Below the pieces are notes generated by a model. It did not search any database and had not been told where the DNA came from. It worked only from the letters and a program-made list of their open reading frames with translations. DNA of 64,000 bases, from positions 25,587 through 89,586 of the forward strand of contig JBEKDF010000008.1 of the NCBI GenBank assembly GCA_050014495.1, read 5' to 3'. This document shows positions 54,195 through 62,082 of the stretch, piece by piece (the first letter of the stretch is position 1; each line of letters opens with the position of its first letter). Both the position numbers and the translations under genes were made by a program. This stretch comes from Candidatus Bathyarchaeia archaeon. Its GTDB lineage: Archaea > Thermoproteota > Bathyarchaeia > TCS64.

Positions 54195-54932
54195 TTATGC
54201 ATTAACATCCTCTGCCTTTGGTCGACCCTTTACGCCAAAGCCATCGAGCATCTTAATAAAGTCCTCCGAGAGGTTACCCAAGTCTAGTGAATTATCTACA
54301 GTTGCCTTTTTCGGTGTAAAGGTCGGCTCATAACCATAGGCGATCGCCTCAGTCGGTTGAGCTGTCCTCGTGGGTGCTTCCTTTAATGGAGGCTCGGGGA
54401 AAGCGTTGTCGAGGCTACTCTCGATCGTTCTCGATACCTCCTTCAGTATCGCGAGGCTCTCCGGGCTCGTGGCGCCGAATACCTCATCTAGGGCCGGTTC
54501 TTTGAAGCCGATGGTTGCCTGTTGGAGAGTATCTCCCGCTAACTTAGCAAGCTGCTCTAACCCCGAGGTAAACTCTGGGGAAATACCCTTGATGTCACTC
54601 ACAACCTCTCTTATGGCCTCTGAGACCGGGTCCATTTGAATGGCATTGTATAGGTCGAGTAGACTCTCCATCCTAATTGAGATACACTCCAGCGCCAACT
54701 GGCTCTGGGAAAAGACACGTTTTAAGTGGCGAACCCTAACCAACTCATTAGCATACATGTTGGCCCTCAAGGTGTCTTTCTTGTAGAGGGCGTTCCGAAT
54801 CATACCAAAGAGCTCTTTCTCACGCTCGCTTAGTTTACCGCATGACTGCTCAAATTTAATGTTCTGCTGTCGAAGTTCGCTGAGTGACTCCTGTGAGACG
54901 AGCAGAGTGTGGCGCGTGCTCATGTTATCCAA
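54195..54932 (-). CDS. ESCRT-III / CdvB-like (Snf7) protein, divergent
   Basis: REKELF....AL...D..RA.MYANEL.RVR....SQLALE.I..R; FPEPP. Confidence 0.8.
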   Translation of the reverse strand: MDNMSTRHTLLVSQESLSELRQQNIKFEQSCGKLSEREKELFGMIRNALYKKDTLRANMYANELVRVRHLKRVFSQSQLALECISIRMESLLDLYNAIQMDPVSEAIREVVSDIKGISPEFTSGLEQLAKLAGDTLQQATIGFKEPALDEVFGATSPESLAILKEVSRTIESSLDNAFPEPPLKEAPTRTAQPTEAIAYGYEPTFTPKKATVDNSLDLGNLSEDFIKMLDGFGVKGRPKAEDVNA

Positions 54933-54952
54933 AAAGTGTCATCTCCCTAGTG

Positions 54953-55600
54953 TTAAGGTTTTGAGTCTTCTCCCCTGACAGATTGGCCCGTCGTTTCACC
55001 TGGCAGTGGGGGGAAGCCATTACTTATCTTCGACTCAGCTACAAACTGGGCCTCACCGAGTATCTTCGATGCATCATCATTCACCGCCTCAAAGTTGATG
55101 GGACCCATAGTCACAACCCCAACGTTGGCTACCATTCCACTCAACAGATCACCTAGATCACCCATCCCCTTCTCCGTCTGAGGATTGATCGAGGCGATGC
55201 CCAACTTGAGGTCATTCATAGTTTCGACGACGGGCAGCAGCGACGCTGCGACATCCCCCAGCTCCGTCGATGTCCTCATCCGCAAAGCGATCTGTTCGAG
55301 AGCCAGCTTCGTCTGTAGGAGCATTCTCTCGATCTTCCGGATCTCTGCGACCTCGTTTGCATAGATGCTAGCTCTCTTGTCATCATGTACCTTGTAGGAT
55401 TCGACTGCCTTATCAAAAAGTGCCTTATCATGCTCCTGGAACCGAGAATATGCTTGGTCAAGGCGCTGATTCTCCAGCTCTATCCTTCTAATCGATTCCA
55501 TGAGCTTCGTTTTAAGAGGGTCCGATGGCTTGATTGTTCCCACCACTTTATCGTATGTAGATGGGTCGTCCTTCTTCCCCCACTTTTTAGCGAAACTCAT
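54953..55600 (-). CDS. ESCRT-III / CdvB-like (Snf7) protein
   Basis: F.KKW, PLK, RASIYANEVAEIRK...KLALEQIALR, LGDV...L.P, DA.KIL.EA, FPPLP. Confidence 0.88.
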   Translation of the reverse strand: MSFAKKWGKKDDPSTYDKVVGTIKPSDPLKTKLMESIRRIELENQRLDQAYSRFQEHDKALFDKAVESYKVHDDKRASIYANEVAEIRKIERMLLQTKLALEQIALRMRTSTELGDVAASLLPVVETMNDLKLGIASINPQTEKGMGDLGDLLSGMVANVGVVTMGPINFEAVNDDASKILGEAQFVAESKISNGFPPLPGETTGQSVRGEDSKP

Positions 55601-57256: not shown

Positions 57257-58252
57257 ATGGTCGCGGCACATTACACAGACATGAGTAGGTTCGTCAGAAG
57301 GTCCTCAATGACGTTTCCCATTAATGTCTCCAGATTCACACAAAAGGCGTACACTAGAGGGGCTGACTGCTACGTCATGGACCTCGAGGACTCGGTCCCT
57401 GAAGCAGAAAAGGAATCTGCTCGAGCACTAATTAAAGACTCCATCCCCTTAGTTGGCAAGGGTGGCTCAGACGTATCAGTAAGGATTAATCGCCCCATCA
57501 GTCAGGCCGTGAAGGACCTTGAGGCCTCGATTTGGCCTGGCCTAACCTGTGTCTCACTCCCTAAGGTCGAATCAGCGGAGGAGGTCAAGGTAAGGGAGGA
57601 AGTGGTATTAGAGCTCGAGAAGCGCCGAGGCATACCCATTGGGAATATACAGATTGCCGTCACCGTCGAGAGTGCCTTAGGGGTGATAAAAGCTTACGAG
57701 ATAGCCTGCTCTAGCCCAAGGATAGTTACTCTAAGTGTAGGGGCTGAGGACCTAACCCGTGAAATGGGTATTCGCACAACAAGCGAAGGAATGGAGCTAT
57801 GGTTTGCAAATTCGAAGATTCTGATTGACGCCTACGCAGCTGGCATTCAACCAATGGGGCTCATCGGCGTCGAGCCCTTCAGCTGGGGTGAGCCGGATAA
57901 GATCTTTGAGGCCGCCGTCGCCTCAAGAAAATTGGGTTTTAGGGGAGCAGGAATAATCCATCCCGCACCAATCATCCAGCTTAACAAAGGCTACTCCATT
58001 CCAGAGGAAGAGTTGTCGTACATGAGAAGAGCCCTGAAGGCTTTCGAGGATGGAGTATCCAGAGGCACGGCATCGGTTGAACTCGAAGGCAGGATGATCG
58101 ACATCGCGACGGCTGAAAGATGCAAATCAATCATCGAGCGCGCAGAAGCAATAGCTGCGATGGATGAGAAAAAGAATGAGGCACTCAAAAAAACTGATGA
58201 ACTTGAAGAAGAGCTAAGGAACTCTATAAGAAAATCCGAAAAACAAAACTAA
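57257..58252 (+). CDS. CitE / malyl-CoA lyase-like aldolase
   Basis: RRS, DLEDSV, VRIN, LPKVES, ESA.G, GAED, IHP, GRMID. Confidence 0.9.
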   Translation: MVAAHYTDMSRFVRRSSMTFPINVSRFTQKAYTRGADCYVMDLEDSVPEAEKESARALIKDSIPLVGKGGSDVSVRINRPISQAVKDLEASIWPGLTCVSLPKVESAEEVKVREEVVLELEKRRGIPIGNIQIAVTVESALGVIKAYEIACSSPRIVTLSVGAEDLTREMGIRTTSEGMELWFANSKILIDAYAAGIQPMGLIGVEPFSWGEPDKIFEAAVASRKLGFRGAGIIHPAPIIQLNKGYSIPEEELSYMRRALKAFEDGVSRGTASVELEGRMIDIATAERCKSIIERAEAIAAMDEKKNEALKKTDELEEELRNSIRKSEKQN

Positions 58253-58332
58253 ACCTTCTTGCAGTTAAAATCTTACAAAGTAGAAAAATTTGGCTTTACG
58301 AATCTATACACACTGATTAGGAAGGGAGTAGT

Positions 58333-58425
58333 TCACTTAGCCAATTCTTTCTCTTTACGCTTCTTTCTTTTCTCCTCTCTCTCCTTCTTAGTCAATGGTT
58401 TCGACTTTGCGTTGTGCATACCCAA
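58333..58425 (-). CDS. Small basic protein (30 aa), not in ORF track
   Basis: MGMHNAKSKPLTKKEREEKRKKRKEKELAK; GGTGAT SD and AAAGGTTTTATC BRE/TATA upstream. Confidence 0.6.
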   Translation of the reverse strand: MGMHNAKSKPLTKKEREEKRKKRKEKELAK

Positions 58426-58546
58426 TTCAATCACCTGATATAACAATCGAAGGTTTGTAGATAAAACCTTTCAAGAGAGATTTTTTCATTGCACGAGCTG
58501 TCAAGATAAGGTTATTCTAGCTGTGGATGAATTTCGGGACAGGCCG

Positions 58547-58708
58547 GCGCGCATACTATCGTCCGCCATCAACAGGCGTGACGTGCTTCTCACCGAGGAC
58601 TCACTCATCCACGCCCTGACCACGGATGAGGTCTATGGGAGGCTGGTTGGGGAGATCAACCCCGAGTTCGTGGTCTCATCCCACAAGGCTCTGCCAGGCT
58701 TGATGTGA
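58547..58708 (+). pseudogene. C-terminal fragment of a PIN-domain (VapC-like) protein
   Basis: ILSSAINRRDVLLTEDSLI resembles the PIN C-terminal D..I.A.A....L.T.D..; no N-terminal DTN motif. Confidence 0.4.
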
Positions 58709-58828
58709 AGCATCTAGGCGATGCGAGTGGGACAACTATAGCCAGCACGGCTATGACTTCCTCGGCATAACAGACCATGCGCACTTGCATACGCCTATTA
58801 ATTCATCTCGCGAACGGCGTGTGTTTGT

Positions 58829-59251
58829 GTTAAGTGGATTTGTTAAGCGTGTAAGGTTGATTGGTGACTCTGTTAATGGATGTTAGTGGTGTTAGCGGTG
58901 TTGTCAAGTTTGTTAAGTGTGTAAAGTCGCGGTTTCGGAGATGTGGACATCTCCATAGGCTGGGACGTGTGGGGACGTGGGGTTCGGGGAGTTTAATGAA
59001 ACCTGTTTGACGCATGGGCAGGTCATGTTTTGGCTTAACATGTGTCGTCTAGGGGTCTGCGGGGCTTAACGGGTGGGTTACGAGGTTAACAGGCGGCTTC
59101 TGGGGTTCACAGGTCTCGTCTGTGGTTTACACCGGCTGTGGTGGGTTAACGTTGGCGGTGGTCGCTGCTTGTTGGGTTCACGATGTGGGATTGGTCTTCT
59201 CAGTGGGTGGTTCGGGTTAACGATGGTTTGTTACCTTCTATTTTGCTTAAC
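58829..59251 (+). repeat. G/T-skewed region with phased TGTTAA and GGTTAAC-like motifs
   Basis: GSTTHAC copies at 59033, 59064, 59084, 59104, 59124, 59144, 59175, 59215, 59245. Confidence 0.75.
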
Positions 59252-59307
59252 GGTGATTTTGTCAACGATTATATGGTTGAAGCGTCGAGGTTTTTCTTGA
59301 GCCGTGT

Positions 59308-61155
59308 ATGCCGCCCCTTGATAAGAGCAGAGTGCTTGGGATGCTGTTCAGGGGGTACTCCGCTCGGGAGGTGGCGAAGAAGTTTGGCGTAAGCAACGTC
59401 ACGGTCTCGAAGACGTTGAGGGATTTCGTCTCGGAGGCTGAGGGGGCTAACAGTGTTTTGGCTGCTGCTGAAAAGCATGGGATAGAGGAGCAGGTGAGGC
59501 AACTCATCGCGATCGGTGGGGTGGTGGAGGAGACTAAGGTCGACGCATCTAGGGCGGGTCTGGGGCTTAGAATCGTCAAGGCCGTTGAGGGGTTCGGCGT
59601 GGATCCTGATGGGGTCCCAGGCTTCATCGAGGCTGTGAACAAGGAGGCCTCTGATCAGCACCTCTCGGCGGAGACGTTCGTGAAGGTGGTGAAGGGAATT
59701 CACGGCATGAAGGTCGATGGGATGAGCGACTACGTCGCCTTCGAGAAGTCTGTCGAGGCTAAGCATGGTGAGTTCGAGAGGCTCGATGATCAGGTCTACG
59801 AGTACGAGGGGAAGGCCGAAGCGGCTAAGGCGCAGATGGATGAGGCGGTTAATAAGAAGAACACCACCTTGGAGGAACTCGATGATTATGTCGCCCTCAG
59901 GGACCGCCTGACGCCACATGGCCTCGACCTCCGCGATGTGGATAAGGCGGAGAAATGCCTCCTTAACATCAAGGAGCAGGGTAGTGATCCCGTCGCCGTG
60001 GTCGCAGTTTATTCGCGGGACGCTGAACTCTCGAAAAAGGTTAAGGATATGGAGCTGAGAGTCGGGTATCTGTCGAAGTCGGAGTTAATCGCGGGGAATA
60101 AGCTGAACGAGACGAACAAAGAACTGGAGTCGAAGACGGAGCTAGCTGAAAGGGTTAGGGAGGCGGAGGCCCTAGGTCTCAGGCCTTCCCAACTTGGCTT
60201 ATTTGTTGAGAAGGCCCGTGAGGTGGGGGCTAGACATGGCCTGGGGATGAAGGAGTCGATTAGTCGTCTCGAAGCGGATCTAAGGGAGAACTGGGAGCCG
60301 AAGCTGGGCTTCGAGAATAATAAAACGAAGCTGGTTGCTGAGCTGGATCAGTGGGATGAGAGGGTCGAGCTCGCCGAGGAGAGGGAGAGGGTTATTCTTG
60401 AGAAGGTCAGGGCTCGTGAGGGGTCGTTCAAGGAACTCGAGGAGCTTAGAAAGCATGTGAGTGCGAGTGAGCTCGTCGAGTTCAGGCGCGTCATCGTTGA
60501 CAGTGGACAGAATGTGCCATCGTTCCGAGGTGAGGTTGAGAGGCTAGGGAGCGTAACTGCTGCGGTTGATGCCGCGAGGCTGAGGAAGGAGGCAGATGTC
60601 GCTAAGCTTGAGACCAGGGTAAAGACTCTGGGTGCTCAGGTCGAGCAGCTGAATAATACGAAGACCCAGCTGGAGGCGAAGATCCTCACACTCAATTCGA
60701 ACGCCATCGAGGCCATCACCAAAGCCTCAAACACCATGGAGGATATGGCCAAGGGTTTGAAGGAGGACTTCGAGAACCCTGAAACGGGTTTCAGAGCGAC
60801 GATGCAGACCATAAAGACTTATGCTACGGCGGAGATGAACCAATCAATAGCTGTTCAGCGTGAGAGCTTCGAGCAGAGTATAAGCAAGTTCAAGAAATTC
60901 ATTGAACGTTCCACCGCTGAAGTAAAGCAGCTGAGAAATAGCAGCTGGAACACAGGAGAACTCATCGGCTACAACGTCCACCTTTTAACCCTCGCGAAGA
61001 TCGTAGCCGGCGAACCCGTGGAGAGGATGCAGACGTTAGTAACCATGCAGATGACGGTCAATGCCTTCGCGGATTACCTCGCCAAACTAGACTTGGCTAA
61101 ATACTGTCCAAGCTGTATGAAGTTTATTGATGAGCTTAGAGGCCAGATGGCTTGA
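59308..61155 (+). CDS. N-terminal HTH plus long coiled-coil protein
   Basis: GYSAREVAKKFGVSNVTVSKTL HTH; extensive E/K/L heptads; no Walker A seen. Confidence 0.85.
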   Translation: MPPLDKSRVLGMLFRGYSAREVAKKFGVSNVTVSKTLRDFVSEAEGANSVLAAAEKHGIEEQVRQLIAIGGVVEETKVDASRAGLGLRIVKAVEGFGVDPDGVPGFIEAVNKEASDQHLSAETFVKVVKGIHGMKVDGMSDYVAFEKSVEAKHGEFERLDDQVYEYEGKAEAAKAQMDEAVNKKNTTLEELDDYVALRDRLTPHGLDLRDVDKAEKCLLNIKEQGSDPVAVVAVYSRDAELSKKVKDMELRVGYLSKSELIAGNKLNETNKELESKTELAERVREAEALGLRPSQLGLFVEKAREVGARHGLGMKESISRLEADLRENWEPKLGFENNKTKLVAELDQWDERVELAEERERVILEKVRAREGSFKELEELRKHVSASELVEFRRVIVDSGQNVPSFRGEVERLGSVTAAVDAARLRKEADVAKLETRVKTLGAQVEQLNNTKTQLEAKILTLNSNAIEAITKASNTMEDMAKGLKEDFENPETGFRATMQTIKTYATAEMNQSIAVQRESFEQSISKFKKFIERSTAEVKQLRNSSWNTGELIGYNVHLLTLAKIVAGEPVERMQTLVTMQMTVNAFADYLAKLDLAKYCPSCMKFIDELRGQMA

Positions 61156-61673
61156 CTGAGTATAATCATAGACTTCGAGAGATGATACAGGTCAAGGAGT
61201 CACTGAATTCTATCGCGTCGAAGACCAAAGATGTATTTGATGCCAAGATGAGGGCGACGGTGAAGGGTCTACTCGACGACCACTACGCCCTGGAGGGTCT
61301 TACGGTCGAGGATGCTGAAGGGATGAGGGCTCATATGCGGGTCGTTGAGGTCAGTGGCCAAATCGCAGATAAGTTACTTGGCGTGGATGGGAGCAATTTC
61401 AGGCAAACACACAGGAGCAAGATGGATTGGGATTATGATAGGCCAAGAAGGGTCTTAGAATATGTCAAGAAGATAGCAGACATCATCCCCGCTGAATACC
61501 TCACTAAGCTAATAAGTGATTCTCAAAGACTCACTGCAGAGGAGCTCATAAGTCGCTATGAAGCTGTGAAAGGCGAGGCGAAGCAGAGCGACTACAGCGG
61601 CCAGCCAAGTGGAATCGACCCAAAAGCATTCAGAATCATAGCAAGAATACGTAGGAAACAAGGTAATAATTAG
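61152..61673 (+). CDS. Hypothetical helical protein
   Basis: TTGA start/stop overlap with the upstream gene. Confidence 0.75.
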   Translation: MTEYNHRLREMIQVKESLNSIASKTKDVFDAKMRATVKGLLDDHYALEGLTVEDAEGMRAHMRVVEVSGQIADKLLGVDGSNFRQTHRSKMDWDYDRPRRVLEYVKKIADIIPAEYLTKLISDSQRLTAEELISRYEAVKGEAKQSDYSGQPSGIDPKAFRIIARIRRKQGNN

Positions 61674-61677
61674 GTAG

Positions 61678-61842
61678 ATGCACGAGCAGGCGAGGAGGAC
61701 CCGGTCAATCAGGATCCAGACCTATGTCGAGAAACTCGCCGACATATTCCCCGCCGAGTACCTTACCCACCTGCTGATCACCAGCCAGACCCACAACACC
61801 GAGGAACTCATAAGGATCTATGAGGCCGATAAGGCGCGCGCG
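61678..61842 (+). pseudogene. Truncated paralog of the C-terminal part of the 61152 protein
   Basis: YVEKLADIFPAEYLTHL...EELIRIYEADK versus YVKKIADIIPAEYLTKL...EELISRYEAVK; similarity ends at CGCGCGCG 61835. Confidence 0.55.
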
Positions 61843-61969
61843 ATCAGGCTCATGATTGAGGCTTTGTCCTCCTCGGATACCTCTTTTGAGTTCCTTAACC
61901 GCTCCAACGCTGAAGCTATATCTGGTCGGTCTTGTAGATGTCATCCTTTCTCGTGTCTCCTACACCCAT
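61835..61969 (-). mobile_element. Remnant 5' end of an archaeal tyrosine integrase gene
   Basis: MGVGDTRKDDIYKTDQ /frameshift/ IASALERLRNSKEVSEEDKASIMSLI; starts 35 bp after the tRNA 3' end, same strand. Confidence 0.5.
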
Positions 61970-62003
61970 AAGAAAAATACTTGAGGGAATTGAACTCGGA
62001 GTT

Positions 62004-62082
62004 TGGTGCTCCCGCCGGGATTTGAACCCGGGATCTCGGACTCGAGAGGCCCATATCCTTGACCGGACTAGACGACAGGAGC
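62004..62082 (-). tRNA. tRNA-Glu (anticodon CTC), CCA encoded, no intron
   Basis: GCTCCTG/CGGGAGC acceptor stem, TGGGC-CTCTCGA-GTCCG, CCGGG-TTCAAAT-CCCGG, ACCA. Confidence 0.97.

Follow-up and report, generated by a model that had tools for sequence, protein, structure and literature searches.

To our knowledge, there are very few cases in archaea where it is known how plasmids and integrating elements are inherited. Among the described systems that come closest to the locus presented here, KfrA (IncU plasmid RA3; IncP-1) consists of an N-terminal HTH on a long α-helical tail, and in RA3 the stability of the plasmid requires that KfrA binds to five 9-bp repeats which lie over the kfrA promoter, according to the available parts of the report (PMC7783346). 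The operator OK holds these short repeats in both orientations, and the system has an α-helical partner, KfrC, and no NTPase of its own. StbA, according to the accessible text, binds repeats that stand in two groups of five ahead of its operon, and it segregates R388 without an NTPase (10.1101/2022.04.29.490116). Moreover, pSK1 Par, RocS and RacA have in common a DNA-binding head, a central coiled coil and segregation by a single protein, as outlined in the available part of PMC11500499. A different kind of repeat site is found in the origins of SaPIs, where penta- or hexanucleotide iterons stand in opposed orientation round a 102-bp AT-rich core (10.64898/2026.10.17.759575, part of the text).

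The locus described here lies in a stretch of 64,000 nucleotides from a Candidatus Bathyarchaeia archaeon (contig JBEKDF010000008.1, positions 25,587 to 89,586), called the window in the following, and comprises two repeat arrays in front of a gene for a 615-aa protein and its 173-aa partner (Table 1). In its proposed working this cassette appears to resemble KfrA, StbA and pSK1 Par, yet it belongs to none of them. Similar to KfrA, a predicted N-terminal HTH sits on a long helical tail, an α-helical partner is present, an own NTPase is lacking, and the position of the arrays, with short repeats in both orientations, would fit a repeat operator over the own promoter. However, the archaeal protein has no KfrA_N match in Pfam (E<=0.1; 25 families shown for 61 members), there are about 20 short words in two arrays instead of the five 9-mers given for OK, the rod is broken by repeated helical modules, and heads are swapped within the family. 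In addition, the neighbours are chromosomal, no homologue was found in PLSDB or in IMG/VR (searched with close alignment), and ParA-like or ParB-N genes lie near only 2 of the 29 fetched loci. With StbA and stbS the cassette shares two direct-repeat sets upstream of an operon and an HTH-type N-terminal domain, which is predicted here, as well as autoregulation and NTPase-free segregation, which are proposed here. In contrast to the 9-mers of stbDR with their 2-bp spacers and 11-bp steps, as given in the accessible text, the words here are 6- to 7-mers with steps of 9 or 12 and 20 bp; furthermore, the protein has 615 aa, no conjugation genes were seen, and there is no positive sequence link. 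Single-protein segregation as by pSK1 Par, RocS and RacA is likewise proposed here, but the family has no DUF536 match. pSK1 Par and RocS have an amphipathic membrane helix at the C-terminus; in 19 family members the C-terminal helix has a hydrophobic moment of 0.30-0.63, which is moderate, and a net charge of -2 to +3, which is not basic, so that it is at most a putative membrane anchor. From partition systems of types I-III the cassette differs by the lack of an NTPase gene and by an all-helical partner that belongs to no family.

No description of the coiled-coil protein family was found in the literature, with most subscription papers lying outside the search, and the available parts of two surveys of archaeal mobile elements (PMC6563490, PMC4158269) contain no passage on it, although members may be listed there as hypothetical proteins. 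The array system is real, conserved and larger than first reported, and it is most likely the docking site of the adjacent protein in an undescribed archaeal mobile cassette.

The two arrays and the proteins beside them

Table 1. Features of the cassette and its borders (window coordinates)
Feature	Position	Strand	Description
Solo insertion sequence end and GCGCGC run	58498..58553	.	scrambled left boundary, outside the module
Array A	58828..58926	+	nine TGT(T/A/C)A(A/G) copies (TGTTAAG), gaps mostly 9 and 12 bp
Central spacer	58927..59032	.	106 bp, 46% A+T, not AT-rich
Array B	59033..59251	+	nine words with the core (G/C)TT(A/C/T)AC; cores spaced by 20 bp; period of 10.08 bp
Predicted promoter region	59260..59276	+	half-turn-offset word TGTCAAC at 59260, then abutting TATA-like box TTATATGG at 59269-59276 (from sequence)
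615-aa protein gene	59308..61155	+	all-helical; predicted HTH at about residues 6-47; 3-4 small helical modules joined by long helices; helical C-terminal part
173-aa partner gene	61152..61673	+	helical; 4-base overlap with 615-aa gene; no known family or fold
Partial duplicate of partner gene	61678..61971	+	partner residues 97-143, 55% identical
tRNA-Glu(CTC)	62004..62082	-	3' end faces cassette

A sequence-only reading of this locus had reported nine heptamers upstream of the 615-aa gene, and copies and spacings proved to be exact: they start at 59033, 59064, 59084, 59104, 59124, 59144, 59175, 59215 and 59245, all on the + strand, with gaps of 31, 20, 20, 20, 20, 31, 40 and 30 bp, and between the last copy and the ATG at 59308 there are 56 bases, given before as about 55. 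These heptamers, array B, form half of the structure, as a second array lies 106 bp upstream; this array A, the extra TGTCAAC at 59260 and the coupled second gene had not been part of that reading. In the whole 3.1-Mb genome array B is the sole cluster with more than six such words per 220 bp, and the runner-up, with six copies on contig C6, is a coding repeat. Dinucleotide shuffles of positions 58991-59300 contained 0.31 copies on average and four at most (2000 shuffles), and if the word is chosen post hoc in the shuffles as well, as the best 7-mer with one mismatch, nine copies were reached in 7 of 500. The best period is 10.08 bp (R = 0.985); when layouts were drawn at random, 0 of 20000 and 1 of 20000 did as well, so that the phasing, whose significance the earlier reading had left to be checked, is significant at no more than 1 in 20000. 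Both copy number and spacing of array B are far beyond chance.

B-DNA has a helical repeat of 10.5 bp per turn, and at this period R is only 0.19, so that the earlier idea of all sites lying on one helical face fails for relaxed B-DNA. Since the period is 10.1 and not 10.5 bp, the sites would spiral on straight B-DNA and not share a face. At 10.5 bp per turn a 20-bp step rotates the site by about 34 degrees, and the DNA would therefore be wrapped or overwound on the protein, or the protein would wind round the DNA.

An assembly artefact was ruled out by the contig of a separate run (X4, not marked as a possible source), which spans 58775-61227 with 0 differences. CRISPR and TIGR are known types of guide arrays; such an array or another non-coding RNA was rejected, as there is no Rfam match with E<=1 in 58250-59400, the folding z is 0.27, and the spacers have 13 nt. 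A coding repeat was dismissed as well, because the 20-bp steps break the frame and the short ORFs across the arrays have neither a Pfam match nor a paralogue; for array A, whose gaps are mostly multiples of 3, there is a small residual chance of a coding relic. The sequencing runs that contain the locus best are labelled peat or wetland metagenome, and no RNA dataset is among the run matches listed.

The A+T content of the central spacer is 46-55% in eight other copies, which is about the genome average, and 37% in L167. A perfect 8-bp inverted repeat, GGAGATGT-GG-ACATCTCC, is located in it at 58939-58956 and is partly kept in L018 and L044. Array A reads TGTTAAG on the + strand and array B mostly TGTTAA(C/G) on the - strand, with the base A next after the core of the word in 26 of 43 copies; the orientation of the arrays is weakly defined because GTTAAC is palindromic. 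Word and TATA-like box at 59260..59276 are predicted to form the promoter of the two-gene operon, and a comparable layout is found in L017, L018 and L023. To the left of array A only scraps are present, namely the insertion sequence end, which recurs in at least 15 other genomic places (73-93% identical) and borders a transposase-like ORF on contigs C5, C17 and C43, and pieces bounded by GC runs. The sequence GCGCGCGC occurs 512 times in the genome versus about 42 times expected from base composition, and positions 58573-58712 are found again in other contexts between GC runs.

The 615-aa protein matches Pfam HTH_23 with an E of 6e-4, which is under the cut-off. Its AF2 model (pLDDT 64, pTM 0.24) places helices at residues 6-14, 19-26 and 30-47 of the predicted head, for which Foldseek gave weak matches to GerE/LuxR-type HTHs (E about 2). 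In the tail, helices of 44-74 residues are broken up by repeated modules of about 40 residues, for which the hhalign probability is 93-97% for three and 14-53% for a fourth. Since these internal modules are homologous, the rod is segmented, and the plain long coiled coil assumed before gives way to a rod interrupted by 3-4 repeats of a small helical module. The term 'ATPase-free' can be kept, as none of the 61 family members has a Walker A motif. Also in close homologues the 173-aa partner gene comes after the 615-aa gene; the AF2 model of the partner has a pLDDT of 83, and its best VIA Z is 5.6 over 50 residues. Fold searches with both proteins gave nothing clear, all Atlas matches being under 0.9, and neither NCBIfam nor PADLOC has a family for them, with generic coiled-coil matches only in PADLOC. 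The partial duplicate behind the partner gene is probably a decayed scrap of it. Two tandem Snf7/ESCRT-III-like genes (Pfam PF03357, under the cut-off) are located at 54195-55600(-) of the window.

Array words and N-terminal heads in relatives

Homologues are present in 8 of 61 related genomes, seven of them of the own genus (own genome included), and their neighbours differ; the cassette gene is patchy and non-syntenic. With 249 cluster representatives at E<=1e-10, the family extends to 25 of 401 genomes of the class and 57 of 401 of the phylum and amounts to hundreds of clusters at 50% identity, which are without annotation. The sequence-only reading had suggested to look for arrays upstream of homologues, and indeed all five intact close homologues that have the HTH head, and for which DNA ahead of the gene is available, carry both arrays there. 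The five array-bearing HTH-headed members, i.e., the window, L017, L018, L023 and L170, are all from Bathyarchaeia, and their proteins are 49-65% identical to that of the window. In close homologues array B opens with a gap of 30-31 bp followed by 20-bp steps (31-20-20-20), and in the five gene-linked copies 18 of 35 array B gaps are exactly 20 bp, with array A gaps of 9 bp in 18 and of 12 bp in 10 of 41 cases. When the copies are compared in register, identity amounts to 83% at the word positions and to 43% in the spacers, of which the low spacer value alone is informative, as the word positions were picked by motif. The best periods of the five copies range from 10.04 to 10.32 bp.

Furthermore, members that differ in the N-terminal head also differ in the array word; the earlier reading had named co-variation with the recognition helix as a check. 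When TTAAC is counted on the sense strand in front of 28 HTH-headed members, the five members of a single clade (support 100/100) have 3-7 copies, and none of the other 23 has more than one. Word and clade coincide, and the co-variation may therefore be due to shared descent. The family body is also found with other N-termini. At the loci with a second head, which has no solved relative (L019, L022, L026), TTAAC is missing upstream and rows of GG(G/A)AAA are present instead, with only 30 bases compared for L019 and with steps of about 20 bp in the GGGAAA row of L022. L022 (6764-7582, -) and L026 (8910-9605, -) also have a divergent gene for a zinc-finger-like and coiled-coil protein, which HTH-headed cassettes do not have. 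Many distant HTH members have an own word shortly before the start, namely TGAAC in L203, L213, L214, L215 and L226, TGA(C/T)G in L199 and L251, TGAGA in L184 and a 12-bp tandem in L253; these words were picked by eye and after the fact, and related members are not independent. A fixed score was used that counts chains of identical 5-mers at on-phase distances within 300 bp. Of 26 HTH members, 7 have a chain of at least four and 15 a chain of at least three, so that 11 have no on-phase chain of three; the corresponding numbers are 1 and 3 for 24 head-less homologues, and 12 and 208 for 2664 ORFs of this genome, which is the one genome used as control. Outside the own genus, chains of at least four precede 5 of 17 HTH members after merging three near-duplicate pairs. 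L167 does not fit a simple one-head-one-word rule, since it combines an HTH head with a long TGTYAA row and a GTGC(A/G)G block, and this block is likewise present upstream of two homologues whose N-terminus is of a third type.

As the arrays are kept in close homologues and their word changes with the head, the HTH likely binds the array. Judged from these sequence comparisons, the two arrays make up one conserved site, with array B as the half next to the predicted promoter, and this site is probably bound directly by the adjacent protein with its predicted HTH and coiled coil. The natural pairs of head and word, with at least three heads on one body and a different array for each, offer a direct test of recognition.

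Other rows with steps of about 10 bp occur in the own genome at C1:139591-140317(-), C47:17809-18361(+), C24:32004(+) and C14:17763(-), with the words GAAATG, GGGATC, GTTCC and GTGAC; the rows on C1 and C47 precede HTH-type genes unrelated to the family.

Mobile context and copies without the gene

Among 29 distinct loci with wide flanks, at least three have a tyrosine integrase, at least one an MCM helicase, at least one a ParA-like gene, at least one ParB-N plus AAA genes and at least three Abi- or TIR-type genes, all of which are lower bounds from a partial Pfam scan that covered 75 proteins (64 from 131 listed) and then 22 of 118. L248 sits in a tRNA-Ile element with tyrosine integrase, MCM helicase and methylase, integrases lie beside L204 and L249, the ParA-like gene is in L249, the ParB-N and AAA genes are in L166, and the Abi- or TIR-type genes are near L198, L208 and L210. 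tRNA genes were found near 4 of 12 close loci, one of which is the window's own sequence, and near 0 of 6, 1 of 16 and 2 of 9 loci in further sets; many family loci are without any mobile mark.

In the window, tRNA-Glu(CTC) is likely a former integration site. An intact integrated element is not present, as the window contains no repeat of the tRNA-Glu 3' end and four runs gave no joint across the cassette. Since integrase and replication genes are gone from the window, the cassette is likely an orphan. About 80 bases past the 3' end of this tRNA gene (61922-62003) resemble the DNA past tRNA-Glu(TTC) on contig C11, with 80% identity over 165 nt including the tRNA.

Arrays were also searched independently of the gene, using the 20-bp chain and a profile of array A made from nine copies, seven of which are among the 13 copies found. 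These 13 are distributed over 6 of 71 family genomes, all of the own genus, and four have the gene (one broken), but nine lack it within the 1.5-kb flanks fetched. Two genomes (G007 and G015, 88% and 92% complete) have arrays and no detected intact gene. Several gene-less copies keep exact 20-bp gaps, and L044, L266 and L278 are cut at GCGCGC runs. L281 and the gene-bearing L273 share 90.5% identity over 2 kb, but in L281 the gene behind the array breaks off after about 15 codons and continues into the C-terminal remnant of an integrase-like gene (46% over 26 aa, E 8e-5), which is followed by tRNA-Arg; the second-head locus L022 sits in the same tRNA-Arg slot. The nine gene-less copies look like deletion relics of tRNA-integrating elements. 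It is also possible that they work in trans or for another binder; two orthologous gene-less copies are 96% identical and thus too close to discriminate. Frameshifts in G015 and G016 may be sequencing errors, and neither the gaps of L281 (30, 18, 20, 18) nor the gene decay in L167 were counted as evidence. L039 and L043 were discarded as single chance matches. L257 and L258, from two other genera, were left out of the counts, as they have unrelated palindromic TTAAC-NNN-GTTAA sites, which in L258 are set between a cysteine-synthase-like gene and a small HTH regulator (names assigned by eye).

Possible roles of the arrays

As the best reading we tentatively propose, by analogy, an autoregulated, KfrA- and StbA-like maintenance cassette of integrating elements that would work without an NTPase and would be orphaned here. 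The HTH head of the 615-aa protein would read the array word, the heads of rod-shaped oligomers would fill about 20 half-sites over 450 bp in both arrays, and the resulting long nucleoprotein complex would support an NTPase-free inheritance of the mobile element that carries the cassette. Through the last word, next to the TATA-like box, the two-gene operon would be autorepressed, the 173-aa protein could serve as an adaptor, and the parent elements would be tRNA-integrating islands from which the cassette of the window was orphaned. The 10.1-bp period gives a clear structural prediction with two alternatives: the protein would wrap or overwind the DNA, or a helix of bound proteins would wind slowly round it. 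Site size and mobile context together suggest a centromere-like role, as for KfrA (PMC7783346) and StbA (10.1101/2022.04.29.490116). Partition or condensation, as put forward in the sequence-only reading, is plausible; the cassette in the window has no replicon to partition. We regard a maintenance role for the mobile element, on top of direct binding, as possible, with a chance slightly short of even.

A wider version appears somewhat unlikely when taken as a whole. It would see in the cassette a widespread and so far undescribed family of archaeal NTPase-free segregation systems for integrating elements, in which a modular rod carries swappable heads that are each matched to an own phased centromere word, with the array wrapped at about 10.1 bp per turn and the excised element tethered via the small partner. 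Head swaps would then create new incompatibility groups, and in two further families of archaea a head-less relative would have turned into a core gene with one copy per genome.

It is rather unlikely that the arrays are only an enlarged autoregulatory operator, with array A looped to array B, and that rod and partner serve another purpose, such as defence or host manipulation. As this needs the same binding, it differs from the maintenance cassette in function alone. The last word abuts the TATA-like box, short rows of 4-7 words end less than 60 bp from the start codon in many distant members (L184, L203, L213, L215), and phased rows also stand before two HTH-type genes elsewhere in this genome that are unrelated (C1:139591-140317, C47:17809), all of which would suit an operator; however, some 20 sites spread across 450 bp, of which half are 380-480 bp away from the start, and base-exact gaps would seem to exceed what repression needs, and two repeats are enough for repression in KfrA, according to the available part of PMC7783346. 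For defence speak the Abi- or TIR-type genes near the three loci mentioned, but PADLOC contains no family beyond generic coiled-coil matches. Moreover, most family loci are chromosomal and without a replicon, which fits an operator as well. Even if the arrays were an operator only, the cassette would still represent a new class of archaeal regulators with a readable recognition code.

An origin of the SaPI/P4 type with a self-loading helicase, which was lost or acts in trans, and with the HTH gene as merely the next gene, is less likely than the maintenance cassette and altogether quite doubtful. With short iterons in opposed orientation on either side of an approximately 105-bp core, and with 9-bp steps in array A, the layout matches that of SaPI origins as far as the available text describes them (10.64898/2026.10.17.759575), but the core here, with 46-55% A+T, is about as AT-rich as the average of the genome, there is no rep gene beside it, and the word tracks the head of the downstream HTH protein. 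The persistence of arrays without the gene would agree with an origin, but no helicase or primase gene lies beside any of the 13 copies of the genus (flanks of 1.5 kb or more where the contig allows). Opposed TGTTAAG rows with gaps of 9 and 12 bp are also found at the 3' end of primase-helicase genes on phage contigs (L052, L060, L063, L075, L091, L114), but these matches came from the array A pattern, and most of the 80 listed are single chance matches. The autoregulated origin offered in the earlier reading thus finds neither an AT-rich core nor a helicase beside the copies examined. That the arrays position archaeal histones, with TTAA steps per 10 or 20 bp between G-rich spacers fixing the wrap over the promoter and no specific binder, is very improbable, for although DNA wrapped on histones has a period of about 10.0-10.3 bp, as the array has in five copies, and the genome encodes two histones, the words in this position differ among relatives, the period is 12 bp in L253 and 20-21 bp in L214, and the array A model matches one genus only (6 of 71 genomes).

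The head-less and array-less distant relative (L216-L241; families f46 and f51) is present as a single copy in 17 of 17 genomes of one and 23 of 24 of the other family and ends in a zinc-finger-like tail. It is mostly located beside SSB-like and lysyl-tRNA-synthetase-like genes (names assigned by eye) and is possibly a domesticated core form.
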